Made by a program: the position numbers and the translations under genes. From an uncultured virus (IMG/VR IMGVR_UViG_2576861110_000002) (taxonomy: Duplodnaviria; Heunggongvirae; Uroviricota; Caudoviricetes), in IMG/VR virus record IMGVR_UViG_2576861110_000002, positions 1 through 64,000 of that record: 64,000 bases of DNA, one strand, 5' to 3'. The notes below the pieces were generated by a model that was not told the DNA's origin, did no database searches, and saw only the letters and a list, made by a program, of their open reading frames with translations. This document shows, in pieces, positions 8,045-54,000 of this stretch. Numbering within the stretch: the stretch's first letter is position 1; each line of letters starts with the position of its first letter.

Positions 8045-8818
8045 TTAACGTCTCACCTTGCGACCTTCAGATTTCCACCAGTATTGACCAATGATTTGTA
8101 CATTTTCTGCTTCAATGCGAGCTGGTGAATAATATTCATCGGGATATTTAACTTTGTCTGTATTACGAGATACTGCCTTGAAGCCGCCTTTACCTTGTTC
8201 ATTCCATTCAAATAACATCTTGATTTTTAATTCATCACCTTTCAAAAAGGCATAAATTTCACCATCAAAGATTCTTTTAGCAGATGTATCAATTGAGATT
8301 CGTTGCCCTGGATATAAATCCGGGATCATGCTTTCACCATCTACAACTAGTACCTTCGCACAATCAGGTTTAACGTCATATCTTCTTATTTCATTAATTG
8401 GAAATAAGAACTTATGAGGGCTTTGATGTTCAATGTTCAAGTAACCACTTCCTGCACTAACCTTAATTTCACTATAGAAATCAATAGCTACATAACCATC
8501 AGGAACAGGGTCGCCATCTTCGTATAAATGGATCTCAGTATCATAAATTAAATTATTCTCAGGACCTGGATTATGTTCGTTTTGATTTCTTTCTAAGACA
8601 GATAAATCTTTATCAAATAAGTCATTAACAGTTACGCCTGCCCATTTAGCAATAGGTTCTAATGTAGAGCGTCTAGGATCTTTAGTAATTCCGTTCAAAA
8701 TGCGGAATACAGTCGATTGTTTAATCTCTGGGTGCTTTTGCTCAAGATCAGTAGGGTTTGTTTCATTCTTTGTGAGCAAATAATCAAGATTCGATTTCAG
8801 GTAATTCATAGATTTCAC
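8045..8818 (-). CDS. cI: CI-like repressor (XRE HTH + S24 peptidase)
   Basis: HTH IKQSTVFRILNG, cleavage site VSAGSG, VDGESMIP catalytic Ser, LKIK Lys; divergent from a Cro-like gene. Confidence 0.92.
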   Translation of the reverse strand: MKSMNYLKSNLDYLLTKNETNPTDLEQKHPEIKQSTVFRILNGITKDPRRSTLEPIAKWAGVTVNDLFDKDLSVLERNQNEHNPGPENNLIYDTEIHLYEDGDPVPDGYVAIDFYSEIKVSAGSGYLNIEHQSPHKFLFPINEIRRYDVKPDCAKVLVVDGESMIPDLYPGQRISIDTSAKRIFDGEIYAFLKGDELKIKMLFEWNEQGKGGFKAVSRNTDKVKYPDEYYSPARIEAENVQIIGQYWWKSEGRKVRR

Positions 8819-22138: not shown

Positions 22139-22212
22139 GTCTAGGAACTCATCATAAATTCATAGTTAGTAAGTTGCAAAAATGCTCTATATCAGTATGG
22201 GGCATTTTTGTT

Positions 22213-24501
22213 ATGGCAAATTCAAATCACAATGATACAGTTTTATCCTATGACGAGCTCGGCTTTATCATTGGAATGAAACGAGTTGAAAAAAAAGTTA
22301 GTACGATTGATTCAAACATTGAAAAGATCATTGGTATCCTTACTCAAAGCTTTGAAGAGCAAAAAGCACAATTTGCACAGCCTCAGCCTAAACTGACTGA
22401 ATTTCAAAAGATGCTTAATGCTGTCAATAATAGACAAGCTTTAGATTTTGAAGATTTATTAAAAGACAAAGCTAATCCAATCACTCAATCTTTTGTTGTA
22501 GCAGACAAGCTGGTCAAAGACTTTGCTGATGTTTTGGACCAATCAATTAATGACCTTAAAACAGTAGATAAAAAACAAATCAACAAATCTAATGGGCGAA
22601 AGCCCGCTATAGAAATTAATAGTCATGATGACTTATCAAAAATTGTAAATCCTAGTGTACCAGAGCGTGACGAAAAAGGCCGTTTTGTATCAAACCCTAA
22701 TGAACCCCAAAACCAATCATCAATTCGTAAAGTTGCCCAAACGATATCTACGGCGATTAAAGGAGTAATGCCGAACTCAACACAAGGTGTAGATCCTACA
22801 GTTGACGCAATCAATGAAGTTGGTCATTTACTTTCACCTGTACGCCGTGCAGCAGGATTAGCTTTGCGGCCATTAACTGGATTGATGCGTAGTAAAAAGA
22901 GAAATGAGCCATTACCTCGTGAACAAGAGAACCATAACCGCAAACAAATAAAGTTATTGCAGCGTATTGCCGATAATTTGGCGTCTAAGGGTGGTTTGTT
23001 AGGTTCTCTAGGGAAATTGCTTACTTCCGTGTTATCTGCTGGTGGTGGGCTTCTAGGTGGTGCTCTAGGCAAAGGAAAGAAAGGTGTAGGGAAATTAGGA
23101 AAGGGCTTAGGTAAATTTCTTAAGTTTGGCCGTGGTCTACCCGTAATAGGTGCATTGGCTGCTGGTGCATCATTATTAGATTGGAATGAACAAAGCACAC
23201 AAGAAAAAGGCGGTACTGTTGGTAGTCTTGCGGGTGGAGTAATTGGTGGTACTGTCGGGTCTTTATTTGGTCCAGTTGGAACATTAATTGGTGGTATGGC
23301 TGGTTCTTGGATTGGGAATAAGCTAGGTACCGTAGTTGCGCCGTATTTTAAAGAGTGGACAGATTCATTAATTGCTGCAGATGTACCAGGTATTATTAAT
23401 ACTGCTTGGAAAGGGTTTGTTAACTATGCAACCAATGCTTTTGAACTGACAAAAGGTACAGCATCAAAAGTTGTAGACGGTGTTAAAGATACTGCTAGTG
23501 ATACCTTAGATTTCATTAAGGATAAATTTAATCGCTTTAATCCATTTCATGACGGCGTTCCCACATGGGGCATTGGGCAAGGAGTTTATAAGCCGGGTTT
23601 TGGAGCAAATAAAAATGTACCTGCTTATGGATCAACTATTTCTCCAATTGGTGAAAAAACTAAGGAAAAGCAACTTGCAGTTTACAATGCTATGAAGAAA
23701 GCAGGTTTTAATGATAATTGGGCTGCTGGTTTAACTGCTTCCGTTGGTCGAGAAAATGATTATCGAGATGAATACTTGTTTGGTAAACATCAAGATAAAG
23801 CTGGTGGAATAAATATGGGAATGATTTCTTGGCAAGGAGCTCGTAAAGACCGGCTTACGGCATATATGAAGGAAAGGGGATTACTTGATGCAAACGGTAA
23901 TATGGTACGGAGCCAAGCAGCTTTAGATGCACAAGGTGCATTTATGAAGCATGAAATCGAAACGAATCCAGAATATGCTTCAGTTAAAGCTTATATGCAG
24001 AAAAACCCAAATGCATCAAAAGAAGATATTGCCCGAGTTCTCGGCACAAAATATGTAAGATGGGCGTATGGGCAAACAAAGCTTCGCAATGGGAAGTCAT
24101 TTGATTATAGACCGCATTTAGAAAAGGAATATAAATACAGAGCTAACATTGATAAAACCGTTCAGGAACAGAAAACTAATCTACCTAAAGAAAATACCCC
24201 AACTGTATCAGATTTGAAATCAAGTCATATTGTGGAAAATACAAGAGCTAAAGTTGCTAGTGTTTTAAGCACCCAAAAAGCTATCGTTCCCCAAGCTACT
24301 ACAAAAGCAAAACCTTCATTAAATAATCAAAATAGATTATTAACTAATGTCACGCCGTTTAAGCAACCTTTAAATACTCCTAACCCACAGGAAGTCGTTG
24401 TTGTTAATGGTAATAATGGTAATATCAGTCAGAATGTAAATGATAGATTCCTAGCACATGCTTTAACTGGTGGGATAGGAATGGGAAACTTAGAAGGTTA
24501 G
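22213..24501 (+). CDS. Tape-measure/injection protein with phage tail lysozyme domain (P1 Sit-like role)
   Basis: Gly-rich hydrophobic segments; AAGLTASVGREN...GMISWQGARKDRL lysozyme-like motif; ATG 22213 preferred over TTG 22174. Confidence 0.75.
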   Translation: MANSNHNDTVLSYDELGFIIGMKRVEKKVSTIDSNIEKIIGILTQSFEEQKAQFAQPQPKLTEFQKMLNAVNNRQALDFEDLLKDKANPITQSFVVADKLVKDFADVLDQSINDLKTVDKKQINKSNGRKPAIEINSHDDLSKIVNPSVPERDEKGRFVSNPNEPQNQSSIRKVAQTISTAIKGVMPNSTQGVDPTVDAINEVGHLLSPVRRAAGLALRPLTGLMRSKKRNEPLPREQENHNRKQIKLLQRIADNLASKGGLLGSLGKLLTSVLSAGGGLLGGALGKGKKGVGKLGKGLGKFLKFGRGLPVIGALAAGASLLDWNEQSTQEKGGTVGSLAGGVIGGTVGSLFGPVGTLIGGMAGSWIGNKLGTVVAPYFKEWTDSLIAADVPGIINTAWKGFVNYATNAFELTKGTASKVVDGVKDTASDTLDFIKDKFNRFNPFHDGVPTWGIGQGVYKPGFGANKNVPAYGSTISPIGEKTKEKQLAVYNAMKKAGFNDNWAAGLTASVGRENDYRDEYLFGKHQDKAGGINMGMISWQGARKDRLTAYMKERGLLDANGNMVRSQAALDAQGAFMKHEIETNPEYASVKAYMQKNPNASKEDIARVLGTKYVRWAYGQTKLRNGKSFDYRPHLEKEYKYRANIDKTVQEQKTNLPKENTPTVSDLKSSHIVENTRAKVASVLSTQKAIVPQATTKAKPSLNNQNRLLTNVTPFKQPLNTPNPQEVVVVNGNNGNISQNVNDRFLAHALTGGIGMGNLEG

Positions 24502-25568: not shown

Positions 25569-26522
25569 ATGGAGTTATTGATGAAAAATTACACTGTTCT
25601 CGTTAAAGTTACTGAATCTAAATCACTTTTTAGAAAAAATGTGTATGAAGCAACTTTATTTGAACACCCAAAAGTCACAATAACAGGATCAAGCTATGAG
25701 GAAGCCGTAAGTAAGATTCAAGAAAAAATCATGGAGTATTTTGATTTCTTGAGTGATCGCGGTGAAGATATTCCTGAACCGGCTGAAATGACAGCGGTCA
25801 TGTTTAAAAATCGTGACAAAGATGTGTTTTTTCACGTTGTAAGTATTGATACATCTGTTTATAGCGAAAAAACAGAAAAAATTAATGTAACAATGCCGAT
25901 CTCTTTAACAAGAAAAATTGACGATTTTTTAAAAGATAAAGTTCATAATTCAAATCTTTTTTCATCAAGATCTGATTTCATTACTAAAGCATGTAAACAG
26001 TACTTACCATATGCTCAAAATTTAGCTGCAATTTTTAATAATGAGAAAAGTTTTTCTGCTTTGAGGTACAAAGAGAGTAATACAACTGATAATTGTTGTA
26101 ACCTTTTACAGTATCTAAATAATTCTTACGGTGAAGAAGTTATTCTCTTTGCAACGCATCGTACACCAAGCCACGGTTATAGTCATGACGATGGACCCGA
26201 GACAAATTTGCCGCTATTAGGGGCGATAGTAAAACTTAATTTACCTGCTTTACGTGACACATATATTATTTTCGATGGATTATTCTTAACTGCACAAAGA
26301 AAGCCTAGATATAATGAGGTAAAAGAAGTTCTCGATACTGCTGTATTAACAAATAAAACAAGTTTTATTCGACATGCTGTCCCATTTACATCTCAATTAG
26401 ACCCTGCCGAGGCTATAAGTCTGTTAGGAGAGTTTCCGCGTAATAAATTAACAGAAGATTCGAGACCGGAATTTTTCAATTTATTGAGTAATATTTCAGA
26501 AGCGCAATATCAAAATTATTAA
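25569..26522 (+). CDS. HicB-family antitoxin domain + RHH fused to an unknown ~170-aa C-terminal domain
   Basis: TITGSSYEEAVSKIQE...DRGEDIPEP (HicB) and EKINVTMPISLTRKID...SRSDFITKA (RHH). Confidence 0.75.
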   Translation: MELLMKNYTVLVKVTESKSLFRKNVYEATLFEHPKVTITGSSYEEAVSKIQEKIMEYFDFLSDRGEDIPEPAEMTAVMFKNRDKDVFFHVVSIDTSVYSEKTEKINVTMPISLTRKIDDFLKDKVHNSNLFSSRSDFITKACKQYLPYAQNLAAIFNNEKSFSALRYKESNTTDNCCNLLQYLNNSYGEEVILFATHRTPSHGYSHDDGPETNLPLLGAIVKLNLPALRDTYIIFDGLFLTAQRKPRYNEVKEVLDTAVLTNKTSFIRHAVPFTSQLDPAEAISLLGEFPRNKLTEDSRPEFFNLLSNISEAQYQNY

Positions 26523-27079: not shown

Positions 27080-27787
27080 ATGACAACAACAGCTTATGAT
27101 ACTCATTTCATGGCTTCCGACATAGCCTTTACAGTAAATCGTACAGAAGTTACTCTAAATATTCCTTTTAGGAAAGTGAAACGTTTGGGCGATATTGTAT
27201 TTGGTATGGCTGGATGTTTATTTTGTATGAGAGATTTTAGCGAGGCCCTTATTGATTTTATCTTACAAAATAAAACACAATTTGAGCTTCCGATATCTAT
27301 ACTTGAAAAAACTAGCAGCGATTTTATTGCATTGATCTACTTAAGTGGTTCTTGCCTTAAAGTTTCAAAAATGGTAAACCACACAGAGTTTACAATAGAA
27401 AACATTACTAATGTTCCTACTGTAATCGGTTCTGGGAGTTTACATACTCAACATATTATTCAAGATTGCCCTAATGCGATAGCTGTTGTTCTAGAAGCTA
27501 TTAAATATGATCAATATACTGCAGGGGAAGTTAAATATTGCAGTATTAAACGAGAAGAAGTTCATAATTTGGAAGCGCCTATCATGTCTACAACTCTTAA
27601 TAATCAAATACAAATGTTGCAAACAGAGATTGCTGAAACAAATCAACTTGTTGGAAATGGCAATACTTATCACGCTAATACTGAAACATACCATCATGGT
27701 GAACCAGTCAAAATTTCTACTGAATTAGGTTTACAAATGTTTCAACACAGTTTAACGAACGTCCGAAATAAATTAACTACTAATTAA
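27080..27787 (+). CDS. Ntn-hydrolase, proteasome-beta/HslV-like threonine protease
   Basis: M-TTTAY N-terminus, MASD, RK, FGMAG, IGSG, D-QY-TAGEV; SD TAAGGA 8 nt before ATG 27080; promoter TTGAAA-17-CATAAT (27025-27053). Confidence 0.7.
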   Translation: MTTTAYDTHFMASDIAFTVNRTEVTLNIPFRKVKRLGDIVFGMAGCLFCMRDFSEALIDFILQNKTQFELPISILEKTSSDFIALIYLSGSCLKVSKMVNHTEFTIENITNVPTVIGSGSLHTQHIIQDCPNAIAVVLEAIKYDQYTAGEVKYCSIKREEVHNLEAPIMSTTLNNQIQMLQTEIAETNQLVGNGNTYHANTETYHHGEPVKISTELGLQMFQHSLTNVRNKLTTN

Positions 27788-27795
27788 TTTTAAGT

Positions 27796-27825
27796 AAAAA
27801 ACCTGCATATGCAGGTTTTTACTTT
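27796..27825 (+). terminator. Intrinsic terminator
   Basis: AAAAACCTGC-ATAT-GCAGGTTTTT. Confidence 0.8.
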
Positions 27826-27912
27826 TAAAGGTTATGAAAATTAATGGAACTTACTTAATTCTCAGAATAAATTTACTTAGAAGATAACCTCATTGATATG
27901 AGGTTATTTTTC

Positions 27913-28854
27913 ATGGGCAGTCTTAATCTTGCAGCTATAACAGCTACTTCTCCATACATTAAAAAGATCCAATCGGCATTAGAAAAAGCAACAGGCCAAA
28001 CGATTGTTACACCAGAATTTCGCAAAATTAAGCGCGTTGCTGGTGTTAGCGTTTTACCAGTTGCATTTTTCTTTTCTGGTGGCGCTACGCTTACACTTTA
28101 TATTCGTGCATTAGCGGATGTAGTGAAGGCCGAACTGAATGATAAAGTAATTGTTCTATCTGGCGATTTTAGTGATGACTATAAGCCAACATTTGAAAAC
28201 GCCGTAAGTTGTGTTGCTAAACTTATCCGTGAAGCACAATCTAAAATCCAAGAACAAAATAAGCGTGAAAAAGTTAGCTTACCGCCGCGCCGTACTTCTG
28301 TAGATCAGAAAATTAAAGAAGTCGAAGAACAAGAGCAAAAGCTTGATGAGGATTTAGCTAAGCAAATAGCTCACCGTGACCAGCTGAAAGAACAAATTGA
28401 ACATGCTAAGCAACAACTTGGTATAAGTTCGGAGGCTGGTCAATCCGAACTGGGAAAGCCTGAATTTGATAGTGCGAGTCCAATCAAATCAGTTACAGCA
28501 AATATCACACGTGGTAAAGCTGCAATGAACAAAGCCATTATGGAAAAAACCACAGTGCATAGAGCTATGTATCGTAATGATCTAGGCTGGGTGGATTTTG
28601 AGTATGGCAGTGATAAACAGGGCATTAAGCATATTATCAAGCGCCGTATGGAAAGTGATGGCATGACATATGATGAAGTTGTGCATATGCTTGTGGATAC
28701 TATTGTGCAAACAATCGCTCAAGGTAGTACACAACGGCGTACAGAACGTGGATTATCTACAAGAATAAATATTGTATTTAATTCGCATGAAGCGTCATTG
28801 ATTAAGCGAGAAGGTAGTAATGCATGGCTGCTTACAGCTTTTGAAGTGCATTAA
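27913..28854 (+). CDS. DarA-N/Hdf-like head-associated protein fused to a PBECR (barnase/ColE5/RelE-fold) nuclease-like domain
   Basis: N-terminal KIKRVAGVSVLPV.FFFSGG...DVVKAELNDK (DarA_N-like), coiled coil, C-terminal LGWVDFEYG..KQGIKHII...WLLTAFE (PBECR1-like). Confidence 0.65.
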   Translation: MGSLNLAAITATSPYIKKIQSALEKATGQTIVTPEFRKIKRVAGVSVLPVAFFFSGGATLTLYIRALADVVKAELNDKVIVLSGDFSDDYKPTFENAVSCVAKLIREAQSKIQEQNKREKVSLPPRRTSVDQKIKEVEEQEQKLDEDLAKQIAHRDQLKEQIEHAKQQLGISSEAGQSELGKPEFDSASPIKSVTANITRGKAAMNKAIMEKTTVHRAMYRNDLGWVDFEYGSDKQGIKHIIKRRMESDGMTYDEVVHMLVDTIVQTIAQGSTQRRTERGLSTRINIVFNSHEASLIKREGSNAWLLTAFEVH

Positions 28855-28945
28855 AAAAAGCCCGGTAGTTAGAGATGGGTTGCGACATCTTCTAACCTAC
28901 ACTTATGACCCTATACGTTCTCGTGTCATAAGTGGAGCGGGCTTT
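28853..28945 (-). ncRNA. Candidate structured ~93-nt RNA convergent on the DarA-N/PBECR gene
   Basis: Minus-strand TTGAAA(28980-28975)-17-TATTAT(28957-28952); closing stem AAAGCCCG/CGGGCTTT enclosing two hairpins; U7 tail. Confidence 0.55.
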
Positions 28946-29053
28946 GTATATATAATAATCCATGCATTTCTTATTTTCAAATATGGAACCATTCACGCTT
29001 ACATATATACAAAAGCAATACCCTTAATATAGTTCTTATTAAGGGTGTTTTTT

Positions 29054-29410
29054 ATGCAAATTCAAATCGGTATTGATATTGTCTTAATTCTTGCATTTTT
29101 AGCTTATCTTTCCGTTGTTACAGGATGGAATAGCAAGAATAAAGCTGCGTATATTAAACAATTCCGTCATGTGCCTATAAGCCTCTTATTTAAAGAAATC
29201 AGATATATGTATTTCATAAGTATGGCATGTGTATTGATCACTATTATTCTTGTTGATTGGCGAATCTATAACGTTGCTTCATATTTTGATGCATTAAGCG
29301 TTTCATTATGGATATTCATAATCTATTTCACCATTTTTTCAACTTACCAGATCGGCACTGCAATACTAGTAAAGCTTTTGATGATTTTCAGTAATAGAGC
29401 AACTTCCTAA
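29054..29410 (+). CDS. Small three-TM membrane protein
   Basis: Three hydrophobic segments; first gene after a GGAAC element. Confidence 0.65.
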   Translation: MQIQIGIDIVLILAFLAYLSVVTGWNSKNKAAYIKQFRHVPISLLFKEIRYMYFISMACVLITIILVDWRIYNVASYFDALSVSLWIFIIYFTIFSTYQIGTAILVKLLMIFSNRATS

Positions 29411-29748
29411 TGATCACATCTAAAACAATTTTAGACATGGTTGAGTACTGGCTTAATCATCCGGTTAATGGGAAGTATGGTTCTGACTTTGGTGCACCTC
29501 TTTATGATTTGCTAATGGCACCTTTAGACTCGAGGGTGGCAGATAGTTTTCTTATTAAGATGAAAAAGGATCTACCAATATTATCTGAGCTTAACTCTGA
29601 CCAATTAGCCCTGTATTCACAAACCGAAGGATTTGAGACGGTTCATATTCATTTAAGCATCATGAATGTGAATATAGATCTTAACCAAGTAGCAGACCGA
29701 TTGGGTAAATCAGTAACAGGTGAGACATATGACATTAACGCAAGCTGA
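29410..29748 (+). CDS. Baseplate wedge gp25/W-like protein
   Basis: GKYGSDFGAPLYDLL motif; directly upstream of a baseplate J-like gene. Confidence 0.6.
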   Translation: MITSKTILDMVEYWLNHPVNGKYGSDFGAPLYDLLMAPLDSRVADSFLIKMKKDLPILSELNSDQLALYSQTEGFETVHIHLSIMNVNIDLNQVADRLGKSVTGETYDINAS

Positions 29749-31174
29749 TTTTGAAGCCCAGCTCCAAGCAGCGATAGATGATTATGAGATTCAGGAACGC
29801 TATAAAGCTCAAGATCCACTTGTCGTTCACCAGCTGCGTTCTATGGCTAGTTTTTTGACTGCATTTGGTCCAGAAATCGATATTGCTTCAATTGAACCAT
29901 TTACCAAAACACGTGACCGCTCAATTATTGCGGATGCTACAAATAAAGGCATTTTGCCTATAGGTACACCGTGTCAGCACTTAATAGAAATTATCAACCG
30001 GTCAACAAATGCTGTGAGCTTAAGTCAAGGGCGAATGATTGAGGACCATAGCGGCGGTAGAGTATGGCGGTTGCTTCAATCAATTACTGTTAAAGCTGGT
30101 GAGACGGCGGAAGTAATAGCAGAACAAAGTGAATACCGTGAAATTAAATATGTTGTACCAGTTACTGAAGGGTTCCATAAATATCGAATAGACCTTTTAG
30201 AGGACCTTTCACTTGCAAATATTTCGGTTAAGCAGGGCAATAATAACTATGTAATTAAGCCGCGCTGGATGAATGTTGAACCAGGTGAATATGCTGTAAC
30301 TGTTACTACAGATAATCTAAGAAGATTGTTTATTGAGTTTGGCGATTCTGAGAGAGCTGGTCGTACTCTGCAAGCCAATGAAACTGTAATAATTGGAATT
30401 CTTGAGACATACGGGGAAGTTGATGTTAATCGTTTAAAAGATGCGGCCTTACTTGATGTACTTACTAATGATGAACAGCGGGTATCAGTGCGTTTTAAAG
30501 CTGGTGGACTGATTAGAGAGGGCGTAGATCCGTTAGCTGTATCAGAATTACGTTTATTATCAAGCTATCCATCACTTTACGATGAAGATGCGGTATTTCT
30601 CGGCAACTTTGACTATGCAGTCCGTAAAAAATTTATGAAACGGGCACAGTTTATTTCTGTCTGGAATGAAACGTTGCAAGAGCAACACTTTGCCATTACA
30701 TACCGCGACATAAATCATTTAAATCTTGTGGTGGTTGCGAAGAACCCAGCTGAACAAGCAACGTTAGAACAAGATATCTGTCGGTATATTGGTTATTGCG
30801 ATAACTTGTATGAAGGTAAAGTGAATGTACATGAAGTAGTTGAAAAGCCAATTGAAGTAAAAATTAAAGGCTCTTTGGCTTCTGTACATAACACTGATAT
30901 GGTTAAGACACAGATCAAAGAATTACTTGTAGAACGATACGGGCGTGAATCATTGAGCTCAAGTCGATGGCTGGTTAATGGCTTTAATACGCAAGAAATG
31001 GGGAAGCTGATTAATGACAATATTGTGGCTTTCCAAGACCGGATGAGTGACTTTACCATTATGCTTTCAAATGAGTTGAATAAGCCTAATGAGTGGGTGT
31101 ATGTGACAAAAGACAGCATTACTGTTGAGTTGGAACGCACCGCTGATATTTCGGGGGCTACATGGACCCTATAA
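29729..31174 (+). CDS. Baseplate J-like wedge protein (P1 BplA-like)
   Basis: Size, IEFGD motif, GVDPLAVSELR and synteny. Confidence 0.65.
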   Translation: MTLTQADFEAQLQAAIDDYEIQERYKAQDPLVVHQLRSMASFLTAFGPEIDIASIEPFTKTRDRSIIADATNKGILPIGTPCQHLIEIINRSTNAVSLSQGRMIEDHSGGRVWRLLQSITVKAGETAEVIAEQSEYREIKYVVPVTEGFHKYRIDLLEDLSLANISVKQGNNNYVIKPRWMNVEPGEYAVTVTTDNLRRLFIEFGDSERAGRTLQANETVIIGILETYGEVDVNRLKDAALLDVLTNDEQRVSVRFKAGGLIREGVDPLAVSELRLLSSYPSLYDEDAVFLGNFDYAVRKKFMKRAQFISVWNETLQEQHFAITYRDINHLNLVVVAKNPAEQATLEQDICRYIGYCDNLYEGKVNVHEVVEKPIEVKIKGSLASVHNTDMVKTQIKELLVERYGRESLSSSRWLVNGFNTQEMGKLINDNIVAFQDRMSDFTIMLSNELNKPNEWVYVTKDSITVELERTADISGATWTL

Positions 31175-46540: not shown

Positions 46541-47437
46541 TCAGTTCACAGGTTCAAAAGGAAAGCGTTTTAATACTTTGCCAAGCTCAAGTACTTCATC
46601 CTTATGAAGAAACTCCCATAGCCCATTAAACTTTTCGCGTAGTTGCACGACATTAATGGGCGTGTGGTGTAGAGAATATTGCTGTACTGAAAGAGCGCCG
46701 TTTTCCTGAATCGAAATCCAGAAGTTTTTCGGACCTTTGGGAGATTGATACTTTAGCTTCTCACCTACATGCTGTGCTATTTCATAAGCTAGCGGATTTT
46801 CTAATGCTGGATACCGTGCAGCGAGATTATCTACAAATTTTTCTAAACGTTTAAGTGTATCTGTTTCGGTTGGGCCTAGCTCATGAAGTGGTATTGTCTC
46901 AAGATACTGCTTCGCATCATCAAAATGGATTGAAAGCAATTGGCTATATTTAGCAATTCCAAAGTGGCGATTATGACGTATCCACATAGAGGCTCTTAAA
47001 CTTCGATCTTTTCCTGCACGACGATCGACGATTGCATGTAAAGCATGCTGTTGTTCAGGTGAGATAGCTTTTCTATGATTGATTACTTGGCCTTTTGTCC
47101 AGTAATTCCATAAGACATCATCACATTCGTTTTGGTACATGATGACAGTGTCACGAAGTTCAGGTTTTACTTTGTTAGGACTGATGGTGGTGAGCCAAGC
47201 AAGAAGTTTTCTTAGTGGTAGACAAACCATTTCCTGTAAGTCGCCAAGAGTAGGTATAACGATTTTCGTTATACCCCATCGTTGAGGATTGGCATTCAGT
47301 TTTGCTAATTGAGACTGCCAAGCTAACCCCATACCCTCAACAATAGGCTTCATGGGTGTATATGGCTGACCATCATGTTCCACCAAGTACAACTCAGCAT
47401 TGTGGAAAGGTACGGTGATTTGAGTTAAAGTAGTCAT
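46541..47437 (-). CDS. ant: Phage antirepressor (P22 Ant N-terminal domain)
   Basis: VPFHNAELYLVEHDGQPYTPMKPIVEGMGLAWQSQ...CDDVLWNYW. Confidence 0.88.
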   Translation of the reverse strand: MTTLTQITVPFHNAELYLVEHDGQPYTPMKPIVEGMGLAWQSQLAKLNANPQRWGITKIVIPTLGDLQEMVCLPLRKLLAWLTTISPNKVKPELRDTVIMYQNECDDVLWNYWTKGQVINHRKAISPEQQHALHAIVDRRAGKDRSLRASMWIRHNRHFGIAKYSQLLSIHFDDAKQYLETIPLHELGPTETDTLKRLEKFVDNLAARYPALENPLAYEIAQHVGEKLKYQSPKGPKNFWISIQENGALSVQQYSLHHTPINVVQLREKFNGLWEFLHKDEVLELGKVLKRFPFEPVN

Positions 47438-48462: not shown

Positions 48463-48750
48463 ATGAGAAACGTCATGAACCACATAATCCATAGTCGATT
48501 TGTGGCTAGTGTTTCTGAATTAAAAAAGAATCCTACAGCAGTTGTACAAAATGCTTTTGGCGAAGCAGTAGCTATTCTGAATAGAAATAATCCAGAATTC
48601 TACTGTGTTCCGGCAGCAATGTATGAACGCATGATGGATCTAATTGAAGATCAGGAACTAATTAAACTAGCCGAGCAAGTTGATACTGACGAAACTGTGA
48701 AGGTATCTATTAATGAGTTACGAGCTAGAGTTCTCAAAAACAGCTCTTAA
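48463..48750 (+). CDS. Phd/YefM (StbD-like) antitoxin
   Basis: ASVSELKKNP...VAILNRNNPEFYCVP...YE. Confidence 0.9.
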   Translation: MRNVMNHIIHSRFVASVSELKKNPTAVVQNAFGEAVAILNRNNPEFYCVPAAMYERMMDLIEDQELIKLAEQVDTDETVKVSINELRARVLKNSS

Positions 48751-48979
48751 AAAGTTTGACAAACTTAACCCACAAATCGCTGAGCAGTTTATTCGTAAGC
48801 TGGAAGCAATCCTAGATAACCCTAAGATACCGAAGAATAAGCTGAGAGGATCAGTTGATCTATATAAGATTAAACTGAAATCAGCAGGATACCGCCTTTT
48901 ATATCAAGTCAAGGATGATGTAGTCGTAGTTCTTGTTCTTGATATAGATAGGCGAGATGTTATCTATAAACAGATGTGA
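48713..48979 (+). CDS. relE: RelE/StbE-family toxin
   Basis: YELEFSKTALKKFDKL...YKIKLKSAGYRLLYQV...RRDVIY; overlaps the antitoxin; terminator at ~48983-49005. Confidence 0.9.
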   Translation: MSYELEFSKTALKKFDKLNPQIAEQFIRKLEAILDNPKIPKNKLRGSVDLYKIKLKSAGYRLLYQVKDDVVVVLVLDIDRRDVIYKQM

Positions 48980-51099: not shown

Positions 51100-54000
51100 A
51101 TGAATGGTTTAAAACGTGCAAAGATTTTAAGTTACAACGCAAAAGGTCGTACTGCACAAGTACACATTCATGGTTTAACTGATGGCGCGAGTGAAGGAAT
51201 TACAGCAACTTTTGCCTATCCAGTCGGCGATAGTGATTTAGATACAGAAATTCAAATTGTGGATGGGGAAGACGTCTATGTCTTCTTTGAAAATGGTAAT
51301 GAAGAACGTCCAGTAATCCATAGTTATGTCAGTCACGGAGATGGTGCGATTGTAGGGGTGCGCCGTATTCGACAAGACAATATTGAATTTATCTCTAAAG
51401 AAAATTTAAAAGTAGATTCTGGCACAACCGTTTCAATCAAAACGCCGTTAATGAATGTACAAGCTAATACTCAACAAACTGGTAATAGCACATTAACGGG
51501 AAATAGCACTGTAGTGGGTAATACTTCAGTTGCGGGCAATAGTGCTGTAGCAGGTAGTATGGCCGTTGGCACAACGCTTACGGTTGCAGGTGTGCCTATT
51601 GACCCTAAAGCTATTGAGGGTGCATTTAAAGATGCTCTTGATAAATTAGAAAGTTTAAAGGAAGAGTTAAAAGAACAAGGCGAAAAAATTGATGAAAATA
51701 AAGATCAAGTAAGCCAAGAGATTGAAGAAAAAGTAAAAGAAGTAGAAAAGTTAATTGAAAATATTAAAGATTCTGATGCATTTAAATTGCTTGAAGAAGG
51801 TATCAATCATATTGATGAAGAAGTGCAAAAAATACATGATCAAGTAAAAGAAGTTGGTCAAATTGCGCAAAATAAAGTTGATGAAGTAAGAGCTTATATT
51901 GATCAAGAAATTATTGATACCAAACTAATTGTTGAACAGCATGCCAGTGATGCAAACATTCGTTTAGATGAAGCCAACCAACGTATTGATCAGTCTATTC
52001 AAGCGAATGAAGCGCTGGTTGCAGATGCTCAGCAACGTGCAATTCGTGCTGAAAAAGAACTCGATGACAAAATCGGATTTATTAAAAGAGAAACAGATTC
52101 AATCATTGCTGATGTAAGAAGTGATGCAGATGAAATTCGATTAGTCGCAGAAAATGCAAAAAAAGTAGCTGATCAAGAAGTTCTAGACCGTAAAAAACAA
52201 GCTGCTGATACTCTTATTGTTATTGATCAAACTAAGGCCGCCTTAAAACAAGACATTGATCAAAACTTAGTAAAAGCTGGTCAAATGATTGATGATGCTA
52301 AATTAGCATTAGGTGAAGAAACTAATACACTCATCAATCAAAAAATTGAACCTATTGTTAACCAAACTGAAGCTGCAGTTAAAAAAGTTGATCAAGTTGC
52401 AGCCCAGTATGTTGACCTAGATAAAAAAGTCGATTCGGGTCTTCTAGCTGAAGCTGAAGCACGTGCAAATGATAAAGAGGCTTTAACTCAAAGTTTTGAG
52501 CTTAAGTTTGCTGAAATGCAAAACGAATTCGGTAAGTCAAACGCTCTAATTTCAGAAGAAATAAAAACTCTAGCAGCTCAAGATAAAGCGTTTACTGAGC
52601 AAATTAGCACCGCACAATCACAAATTGGTGACAACAAAACTGCTATTAACAAAGTCGAACGTACTGTAAGTGATTTGAATCAATCTATTGCTGAGAAAAC
52701 CTCACAAATTGAATCTACTCTTAAAAACTCACAAGAACAAATAGAAGGTAATGCCGCAAACATCGAAAAAGTAGAATCTTCAGTGAAACTTGTTGATGAG
52801 AAGGTTGTTTCAGAAGCAAAAAAACTTGAAGAACTAAAAACTGACTTTAATTCGAATAAAACTAAAACAGAGTCGGATATAGCAACAATTGCTCAAACAG
52901 TTTCTGATGGTGATAAAGCCTTATCTTTACGTATCGACTAAACGAAAGCAGCTTTGGAAGAAGCTGATCGGAAATCTAATGCAAATATTTTAGAAGTTAC
53001 TGAGTCACTTACCGAGTTGGAACAGTCTACTGCTTCGAAATTTAGTGAACTTGATACAAGTATCTCTAAAGAAAACTTAAAGGTACAAGGGCAAATTACT
53101 GATATTCAAAAAAGTGTTTCGACCTTAGAAAGTAATACAAATACAAGCATAAATGGCCTTTCATCATCACTTAAAACTACTGATGATCTTGCAAAACTGG
53201 CTTTTGATAATGCAGCAGAAGCGCAGCAAACAGGAACAACGGCGGTAAAAGCTACCGAAGCCCTTTCTCAAAATTTATTAAGTCTAAAATCTCAAACTCA
53301 AGTAACTTCTGGGGTACGTGCAGTCGTCACGACAAAAGGTATTGATGACTGGACACGTTGGCGTACCACTGCAGAAGCGAAAGTAATTCAAGATTCTGAT
53401 GCACTAGGTGGTTATATTCTTGAGCTTGGGAATAATGCTGATAATGATGAAACATGGGTTCATTGGAATGAGTTTGTAAAAATTAACCCAGATACACTTT
53501 ATCGGGTTCGTGCACGTTTCCGCCGTGTACTCGGTGAAAATGGATCTATTTATCTTGGTGTTGCATGTAAAAATGCAGACCAAAGTAAATACGTAACGAC
53601 TACAAACACCCTTGCAGAAGATATGGGTTCTTCTAACTACTTATTGTCGGCCATTAAACCTAATTTAGGTGAGTGGCAAGAAGTAGTTCTATACATGAAG
53701 GGTAAGTCTACTGGGGCAGCAACTGGCTTAGGGACAATTGATAATCCGCGTACTTTCCCCGCGCAAGCTGAATTTTATGCCCCAATCTTTATTGCAAACT
53801 ACAACTTCCAGACAGGAATTTGTCAGCTTAATTACATTATTGTTGAAGATAACAACTCATTAGCTTCAGCTAATGATGCAACCGCAACAGCAAATGATTT
53901 ATTCAAAACAGCAACTAACAGAACAGAAGCTGAAGCTGAAAGGACCAGTAAGCTTGAAACAAGAATGCAGAATGCAGAAACAGGTATTCAGAGCAATGCT

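Follow-up and report, generated by a model that had tools for sequence, protein, structure and literature searches.

What is the compact, strongly structured stretch that overlaps the stop codon of a gene for a predicted RNase in an Acinetobacter prophage and faces that gene from the opposite strand? The locus lies in the first 64 kb of the 78.9-kb provirus record IMGVR_UViG_2576861110_000002 (Caudoviricetes), and these 64,000 nucleotides are referred to here as the window. The gene encodes an Hdf-like N-terminal part joined to a PBECR1 domain, and a reading made from the letters of the window (the sequence-only reading) had placed a promoter-driven RNA with a three-way junction on the minus strand beyond it. 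We find that this element belongs to a widespread family whose structure is maintained by compensatory base changes, and that PBECR1 domains are rarely found without it. We interpret the element as a probable small-RNA gene of ~93 nt, read from its own sigma70-type promoter and convergent to the Hdf-like/PBECR1 gene. The features concerned are as follows.

27898..28854, plus strand: gene for a 318-aa protein; N-terminal aa 8-184 Hdf-like, C-terminal aa 223-316 PBECR1 predicted RNase domain
28975..28980, minus strand: -35 hexamer TTGAAA; 10/12 promoter match with a 17-nt spacer
28952..28957, minus strand: -10 hexamer TATTAT, ending 6 nt before the closing stem
28853..28945, minus strand: predicted ~93-nt small RNA with a three-way junction, from fold and covariance model; 5' end placed from the promoter, 3' end from the U tract
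28938..28945, minus strand: 5' arm of the closing stem, AAAGCCCG, pairing with 28857-28864 over 8 bp
28900..28934, minus strand: hairpin 1; 10-bp stem (28925-28934 with 28900-28909) and 15-nt loop ACGAGAACGUAUAGG
28868..28896, minus strand: hairpin 2; 10-bp stem with one bulged A, and 8-nt loop
28853..28864, minus strand: 3' arm of the closing stem, CGGGCUUU (28857-28864), with the U7 tract (28853-28859), the first three U of which are the UUU of the stem

The element in the window and its partner gene

On the minus strand, positions 28980-28952 read TTGAAA-17-TATTAT, and the promoter is followed by AAAGCCCG, CTC, a hairpin running from CACTTATGAC to GTCATAAGTG, TAG, a second hairpin from GTTAGAAGATG to CATCTCTAAC, TAC and CGGGCTTTTTTT. 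This is the order of promoter, stem and hairpins that the sequence-only reading had described, in the same positions. The predicted minimum free energy fold of the 93-nt stretch is likewise the three-way junction it had proposed, with the two ends paired around two hairpins; the energy of -33.9 kcal/mol compares with -18.3 ± 2.9 for 200 shuffles (z -5.29), none of which is as stable. Since the plus strand of the element folds about equally well (-37.3, z -4.27), a single-sequence fold cannot pick the strand, a choice that falls to the comparative data below. The closing stem and U7 together look like an intrinsic terminator, and the U tail does reach the stop codon of the PBECR gene as claimed, its final two U being complementary to the two A of the TAA at 28852-28854. 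The RNA's promoter is the sole 10/12 match among nine promoter-like sites in 27500-30000, where 10.2 sites are expected by chance; because the count does not exceed chance, the promoter alone would prove little. Searches with Rfam 15 returned no match at the gathering score over the whole window, none of relevance at E ≤ 10 in 28780-29080, and none at E ≤ 0.1 in 10 homologous loci.

The partner gene is a fusion. Its N-terminal part matches the Hdf-like family phrog_1620 (PHROG, E 1.1e-29), and its residues 223-316 (nt 28564-28845) score 45.8 bits for PBECR1 (PF18809), where the curated cutoff is 27.6 (E 9.5e-12). The window's protein retains every one of the 12 invariant columns of the protein alignment A2, including H56 and R61, and RNase activity is predicted. 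An AlphaFold model of the domain (pLDDT 91.6) finds toxins of the BECR fold as its closest structures, namely CdiA-CT (Z 6.2), a Salmonella toxin (5.8), BrnT (5.0) and the colicin D tRNase (4.9), with RelE/ParE-type toxins also among the top matches (Z 6.2-4.2 in the top rows) and a best Foldseek E of 2.5e-3. These structural matches of a predicted model are consistent with the Pfam call, at Z-scores modest enough that they are no independent proof of it.

Close relatives allow the neighbourhood to be compared base by base. The gene was found in 68 IMG/VR loci and the element in 64 of these, as 15 distinct sequences. Across them the -35 and -10 hexamers are invariant and the spacer varies at four sites, while inside the RNA four positions carry substitutions and the U run changes once in length; at one position a G-C pair becomes G-U on the minus strand, and at another a pair of hairpin 1 is broken (5 loci). 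Over about 62 loci, 6 sites are polymorphic in the 100 nt of the element, 50 in the last 250 nt of the gene and 121 in the following 350 nt, so that the element is the least polymorphic stretch of its neighbourhood. In this Acinetobacter phage lineage the RNA and its promoter lie outside any open reading frame (ORF).

The same lineage reveals what happens when the C-terminal domain is exchanged. The element is missing from loci in which the gene ends in another C-terminal domain (L066, L070 and four more); in L066 its position is taken by a plain terminator, after which the same downstream gene follows. Conversely, locus L069 retains just the PBECR1 part, the RNA and the RNA's promoter. This pattern of swapping indicates that the PBECR1 domain and the RNA act as one cassette. 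In L066 (2501-3907) and L070, the Hdf-like N-terminus (74% identity, aa 1-230) is joined to another C-terminal part of ~240 aa with no Pfam match, which we regard as a swapped effector cassette without the RNA.

A family of elements behind PBECR1 domains

When the window's element served as the basis of a covariance model (R1), the model unexpectedly matched seven distant PBECR1 loci; each match lies antisense, immediately behind the domain, and within an ORF. A nucleotide pattern was then drawn from the conserved loops and built to exclude the window's own lineage; it gave 38 viral loci, and the same kind of pattern gave more than 122 places in species-representative genomes, 80 of which were examined. 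A second covariance model (R2), built from 56 aligned matches, separates true members from chance matches to the pattern. By this test 33 of the 38 viral loci and 36 of the 80 genome loci are true members, and the remaining five viral loci (GC-rich repeats) and 44 genome loci were dropped. R2 also recovered diverged members that R1 had missed, and it scores the window's element at 94.9 bits (E 1.8e-29). The element is present once in the 78.9-kb provirus record; a weak R2 match at 53295-53388 of the window (17.7 bits) was regarded as chance. In all, 78 distinct element sequences were collected from phage, genome and metagenome contigs of many phyla, the viral, genome and protein-derived sets of loci overlapping in that some contigs are the same. 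Judged by record titles, members occur in Pasteurellaceae, Neisseria, Comamonas, Acinetobacter boissieri, Ferrimonas and Colwellia, and further in Desulfobacterota, Syntrophomonadaceae, Bacteroidota, Verrucomicrobiota, Dehalococcoidales and others.

Most of these relatives reside in a setting that differs from that of the window. A full HMMER search (E ≤ 1e-3) gave 357 representative proteins with a PBECR1 domain, the majority of 2000-5000 residues with the domain mid-protein; they correspond to the polyvalent proteins that Iyer et al. described in 2017 (PMC5512222). Only five homologues are of near-equal length to the window's protein, because most relatives are giant proteins. With tblastn, the domain found only phage ABMM1 and weak Helicobacter phage matches among phages, and only five Acinetobacter records among plasmids. 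Most members of the RNA family lie antisense within the ORF of a giant polyvalent protein, directly after its PBECR1 domain, and 45 of the 78 elements are wholly contained in a sense ORF of at least 200 codons.

The coupling to PBECR1 can be counted from the protein side. The element is present at 16/16 distant PBECR1 loci in viral contigs. A metagenome search that used only the protein gave 78 loci, of which 65 were usable (the match reaches the domain end and at least 110 nt follow); 62 of these 65 carry the element, always antisense, and its start precedes the end of the protein match by a median of 6 nt (range -12 to +90). The sequence-only reading had named co-occurrence with PBECR genes, covariation and a minus-strand transcript as the observations whose absence should count against it; the first is borne out by these loci, the second by the alignments below. 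Seen from the RNA, 32 of the 33 true viral pattern loci adjoin PBECR1, and the remaining one faces a PBECR3 gene. In locus L159, with its three PBECR1 domains, there is one element behind each domain and a fourth besides (881-983, 1451-1553, 2402-2504, 2540-2642). The dependence is asymmetric: PBECR1 without the RNA is rare, whereas the RNA without PBECR1 is common in bacterial genomes, where some loci (L225, L239 and L190) preserve frameshifted PBECR1 remnants beside it. Multiple or tandem copies were also seen, three each in L256, L190 and L237 and two each in L175, L168, L201, L262 and L194; those of L256 repeat with a period of ~142 nt, with a promoter-like spacer in each unit.

Covariation in the family is very strong. 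Across the 78 distinct sequences, 89.4% of pair cells hold a standard pair, against 57.6% in shuffles, and none of 500 shuffles reaches the observed value; sliding the partners by 1-3 columns lowers pairing to 31-43%. Changes on both sides affect 26 of the 28 pairs, with 752 double-change cells against 224 in shuffles. The first set, of 32 rows, had behaved alike (92.2% paired versus 58.5%). Compensatory changes occur in 7/8 pairs of the closing stem (helix 1, in which 91.3% of cells are paired), in 9/10 of the stem of hairpin 1 and in 10/10 of hairpin 2 (helix 3). A model-free check, in which 30 diverse members were aligned with MAFFT and folded with RNAalifold, recovered the same junction de novo, with 29 pairs of which 25 show compensatory changes. 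The claim that there is more structure here than a simple terminator needs is thus upheld by the covariation, by the two inner hairpins and by the conserved loops. Mismatches of the two possible strands also differ: read on the antisense strand, the 78 sequences contain 186 G.U and 41 A.C combinations (70 and 10 in the first set), and this excess of G.U identifies the antisense strand as the folded one.

The loop of hairpin 1 follows the consensus aCG...a.Gu.gUAGg throughout the family. Also of note, the A6 consensus contains two similar single-stranded motifs, GUGUAGG on the 3' side of the hairpin 1 loop and GCGUAGG in the junction before hairpin 2, as well as an invariant GCUCCC after the closing stem; inspection by eye found no tertiary pairing among the three.

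Of the 45 elements inside ORFs, 44 share one translation frame, which yields a recognisable linker motif, G..T[HQ]..PT..R...GA. The constraint, however, is on nucleotides. The glycine codon is GGA in 74/78 sequences, and the codon before it ends in G in 74/78 yet encodes at least nine different amino acids; at two positions an xCT codon with a variable first base persists in 77/78 sequences each; the arginine codon is CGT in 58 of the 78 and CGN in 75, and AGR in none. This holds over 43-69% G+C, and conservation is higher at third than at first codon positions. Because conservation tracks bases and not residues, the linker motif is best understood as a side effect of the RNA.

The promoter, of little weight at a single locus, is conserved as well. 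A sigma70 match of at least 9/12 whose -10 ends 3-14 nt before the closing stem is found for 33 of 77 elements, against 0.9% of 3080 random positions taken from the same loci and strand; at a threshold of at least 8/12 the figures are 45/77 and 3.8%. This enrichment persists even though 45 of the 78 elements lie within long sense ORFs. Members from Bacteroidota are not expected to fit the sigma70 consensus.

Setting in the prophage

The window has the layout of a temperate phage by PHROG annotation, with an integrase at the left end and a CI-like repressor at 8045-8818, followed on the plus strand by replication genes and then by tail, baseplate and head genes among which several accessory genes are inserted. 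Around the element it is 98.7% identical to Acinetobacter phage vB_AbaM_ABMM1. Accessory inserts of the late region include a 317-aa HicB-like protein (25569-26522), an anti-repressor on the opposite strand (46541-47437) and an antitoxin/RelE-like pair (48463-48979). A 775-aa protein at 22174-24501, annotated in ABMM1 as tail tip lysozyme, matches phrog_19273 (E 4.1e-21), a giant polyvalent-protein family that also covers the PBECR1 part of the Hdf-like/PBECR1 gene; it appears that modules of polyvalent proteins are spread over separate genes in the window's phage. ARAGORN found no tRNA or tmRNA genes in the window.

One further structure lies between the RNA's promoter and the next gene.

29017..29049, strand not assigned: 13-bp hairpin with T runs on either side, between the RNA promoter and the next plus-strand gene; terminator-like score on both strands

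This hairpin is the probable end of the PBECR1 mRNA, which would include the full complement of the small RNA if plus-strand transcription reaches it. Its 3' arm bears the probable Shine-Dalgarno sequence AAGGGTG of the next gene, and its T run leads directly into an ATG at 29054; this is the likely start of that gene, because the PHROG alignment begins at residue 4 of the GTG-started ORF. The hairpin may be a terminator and a translational gate at once. In ABMM1, the coding sequence vBAbaMABMM1_78 (L001 6121-6711; OQ471969 70033-70623) spans the RNA gene, its promoter and the hairpin and continues into the next gene. Its frame is interrupted in the window, as ORFs 28820-29032 and 29045-29410, and it is probably an over-extended gene call; the 70-aa ORF 28820-29032, which overlaps the element, has no family match in Pfam and PHROG profile searches.

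Possible roles of the RNA

That the RNA is functionally tied to the adjacent RNase-like domain, as the sequence-only reading had supposed, is well supported by the comparisons above; the antitoxin, decoy or substrate role attached to that tie is a proposal that we carry forward in modified form. We tentatively favour a dedicated neutraliser, or antidote, of the PBECR1 RNase, a role that the genomic pattern suggests. The one-sided dependence of domain and RNA is the pattern of a toxin and its antidote; the RNA fills the slot in which related BECR toxins have a protein immunity gene; every copy of the domain brings its own RNA; and the conservation of loop sequences across phyla speaks for a conserved partner encoded next to the RNA, which pairing in cis would not need. 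We also count in its favour that the toxins resembling the PBECR1 model were each solved together with a dedicated inhibitor. We envision that in the producing cell the constitutive RNA would inhibit the RNase by binding it, or would be its preferred decoy substrate, during protein synthesis and packaging. The protein, probably packaged in the head given its Hdf-like N-terminus, would enter a new cell with the DNA, free of RNA and hence active, and would be shut off again after the incoming genome has transcribed the RNA. Orphan RNAs in prophage remnants could protect against RNases injected by related phages. The proposal in its full extent would have an RNA immunity gene and its promoter placed antisense within the coding frame of the RNase domain that it neutralises, or immediately behind it, with each PBECR1 module of phage and conjugative-element polyvalent proteins having its own antidote, an RNA timer limiting the injected RNase to the first minutes after entry, orphan copies in resident prophages serving as RNA-based immunity against effectors that incoming phages inject, and the linker peptide as a by-product; taken as a whole, we regard this as possible but doubtful.

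Several observations weigh against an antidote. The RNA is not exclusive to PBECR1: within 1.2 kb of the 36 bacterial genome loci with the RNA, the domain is found at 14 and not at the other 22. In L195 (1301-2071) and L246 (1191-2072) the element follows LPD3 (PF18798, E 3.9e-16 and 1.7e-10), and in L228/L187 it faces a PBECR3 gene (PF18812, E 2.4e-22), so the RNA may serve more than one effector domain. Other genome copies are intergenic, often in tandem twos or threes, near Bro-N, AntA, HTH_3, YagK/YfjJ, MmeI or integrase-like genes. The three of the 65 metagenome PBECR1 loci without the element are the most distant matches (28-32% identity), and the PBECR-like domain of the Helicobacter phage (26.6% identity) has no element even in an unfiltered search. 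With regard to the alignments, A4 and A6 were fitted to the covariance model and A7 was not, and many of the family sequences are mutually related. At the 3' end, at least five U in the 9 nt after the stem are present in only 29/78 elements, for which reason we rejected a U-rich terminator tract as a family-wide feature; the window's U7 is among the clearest of the family. Where the tract is lacking, many transcripts may continue antisense into the PBECR1 coding region, which fits cis-antisense control at least equally well. As for transcription, 14 RNA runs from 4 studies contain the region (0.91-0.92 of sampled words), as contigs without strand or ends, and four raw-read RNA runs sharing only the species label place 0 reads on it, the prophage being absent from those runs.

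Cis-antisense control of the type I kind, which we consider rather unlikely, is the main alternative. The promoter would drive an antisense transcript with the three-way junction as its 5' part, whose pairing with the sense mRNA at or beyond the PBECR1 end would lead to duplex cleavage, transcriptional interference or loss of the downstream message, and in lysogens or donors the toxic RNase would stay silent. RNA and sense gene converge and overlap at every locus, sense-antisense complementarity is certain, and the RNA is antisense to a long ORF for the 45 of 78 elements noted above; the scarcity of U-rich tails makes read-through into the PBECR1 coding sequence likely at many loci, and in the window the plus-strand mRNA probably extends to the 29017-29049 hairpin and would then hold the RNA's full complement. 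But an RNA that is complementary by construction needs neither loops conserved across phyla nor a conserved three-way junction, and orphan copies have no sense gene to control. The window's U7 terminator would stop the RNA at the stop codon and leave the coding sequence uncovered. Nor is it explained why PBECR1 alone among the many domains of polyvalent proteins would need such control, and why there is one RNA per domain copy.

It is less probable still, and in our view unlikely, that the RNA is a positive partner of PBECR1 (a cofactor, a guide or a processed substrate that the domain needs) or an independent trans-acting regulator, that is, a mobile-element small RNA concerned for instance with superinfection immunity or antirepressor control and hitch-hiking at a recombination-prone domain boundary. 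The high model scores of orphan copies reveal selection on the RNA alone, and such stand-alone copies, intergenic and often tandem, lie by Bro-N, AntA antirepressor-like, HTH_3, YagK/YfjJ and integrase-like genes; the conserved single-stranded GCUCCC resembles an anti-Shine-Dalgarno seed. Coupling at 62 of 65 loci, at a fixed offset from the PBECR1 end, is hard to square with hitch-hiking, and a cofactor produced only after DNA entry would be of no use to a protein acting on arrival. No convincing target emerged when the RNA was scanned by duplex energy against the 77 translation start regions of the window: the best value, -37.9 against a mean of -21.3 ± 4.3 with the RNA's own fold ignored, belongs to a long, loop-ridden duplex.

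That there is no RNA gene at all, and that the element is instead a sense-strand feature (a complex terminator, a 3'-untranslated or other mRNA structure, or a linker peptide such as a protease or packaging signal after PBECR1) or a DNA site for cassette shuffling, is very unlikely: the equally good fold of the window's plus strand, the single reading frame with its peptide motif and the position at a cassette boundary would suit it, but the G.U excess, the conservation of third over first codon positions, the antisense promoters, the structure kept in non-coding orphan copies and the mid-ORF position at most loci, where a terminator of the sense gene makes no sense, argue against it. A simple intrinsic, bidirectional terminator was rejected for related reasons: the window has the closing stem and U7, yet two inner hairpins and the loop sequences are retained across the family, a majority of members fall within ORFs, and the U-rich tail is confined to the minority given above.

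The antidote that we tentatively favour can be set beside known systems. In type III toxin-antitoxin systems (ToxIN, CptIN, TenpIN), as here, an endoribonuclease is accompanied by a dedicated structured RNA thought to neutralise it, often on mobile elements, and the tandem RNA copies at a few loci of the family (units of ~100 nt) add to the likeness. Type III antitoxins, however, consist of short repeats in tandem, which precede the toxin gene on its own strand, share its transcript and are cleaved by the toxin, whereas the window has a single 93-nt unit with its own promoter in convergent, antisense orientation, the family is usually nested in the toxin ORF, and the predicted toxin fold is BECR and not ToxN-like. 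We therefore rejected membership of type III, the defining tandem-repeat, same-strand, co-transcribed architecture being absent; 'type III-like', a term of the sequence-only reading, stands as an analogy only. With type I systems and other cis-antisense RNAs, the element shares a structured antisense RNA that has its own promoter and overlaps the toxin transcript. Type I toxins are small hydrophobic membrane peptides, and the antisense RNA binds their mRNA and blocks translation; here, in contrast, the partner is an RNase domain of a large protein (in the window, the 318-aa Hdf-like/PBECR1 protein, on which ground type I membership was rejected), the overlap lies at the 3' boundary of the domain, and the loops are conserved across phyla.

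In gene order there is a parallel with polymorphic toxins and colicins and their immunity proteins (CdiA-CT/CdiI, colicin D/ImmD, barnase/barstar), which include the nearest structural neighbours of PBECR1. In these, the gene of an antidote comes directly after an RNase of the BECR fold, toxin and antidote are exchanged together as a cassette behind an unchanging N-terminal delivery domain, and orphan antidotes occur. Their antidote is a protein, whereas here an RNA gene on the opposite strand occupies the immunity slot and there is no cassette-specific small ORF. The C4 RNA of phages P1 and P7 resembles the element in being a small RNA encoded by a phage, with paired 5' and 3' ends that enclose two hairpins bearing functional loops. 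C4, however, is cut out of the operon transcript and precedes icd/ant on their own strand, whereas the element is convergent to an RNase gene and has no match in Rfam 15, which includes C4; the suggestion of a C4/CI-type regulatory RNA thus found no support.

A toxin with an RNA antidote or antisense RNA is a known kind of system, of which the element would be a variant; the RNA family and the gene arrangement appear to be new. PBECR domains were predicted in 2017 as RNases injected with the DNA by phages and conjugative elements (PMC5512222). The passages searched of that paper and of a 2026 preprint on BECR classification mention no antisense, non-coding or small RNA, and the element is not mentioned in the literature covered by our full-text searches, a scope that leaves out most subscription journals and supplements. 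How a producer tolerates injected PBECR RNases, and what limits their activity, has not been addressed so far, and a conserved RNA partner would fill this gap. If the proposal is true, RNA-based toxin neutralisation would be extended to the BECR superfamily. The family would also illustrate clearly how an RNA gene, together with its promoter, can be overprinted on a protein frame and dictate the sequence of a linker, and, since most members lie within ORFs, searches for structured RNAs confined to intergenic regions would miss it. The window's Acinetobacter lineage, in which the RNA and its promoter lie outside ORFs and can be mutated without changing a protein, is a natural test bed.

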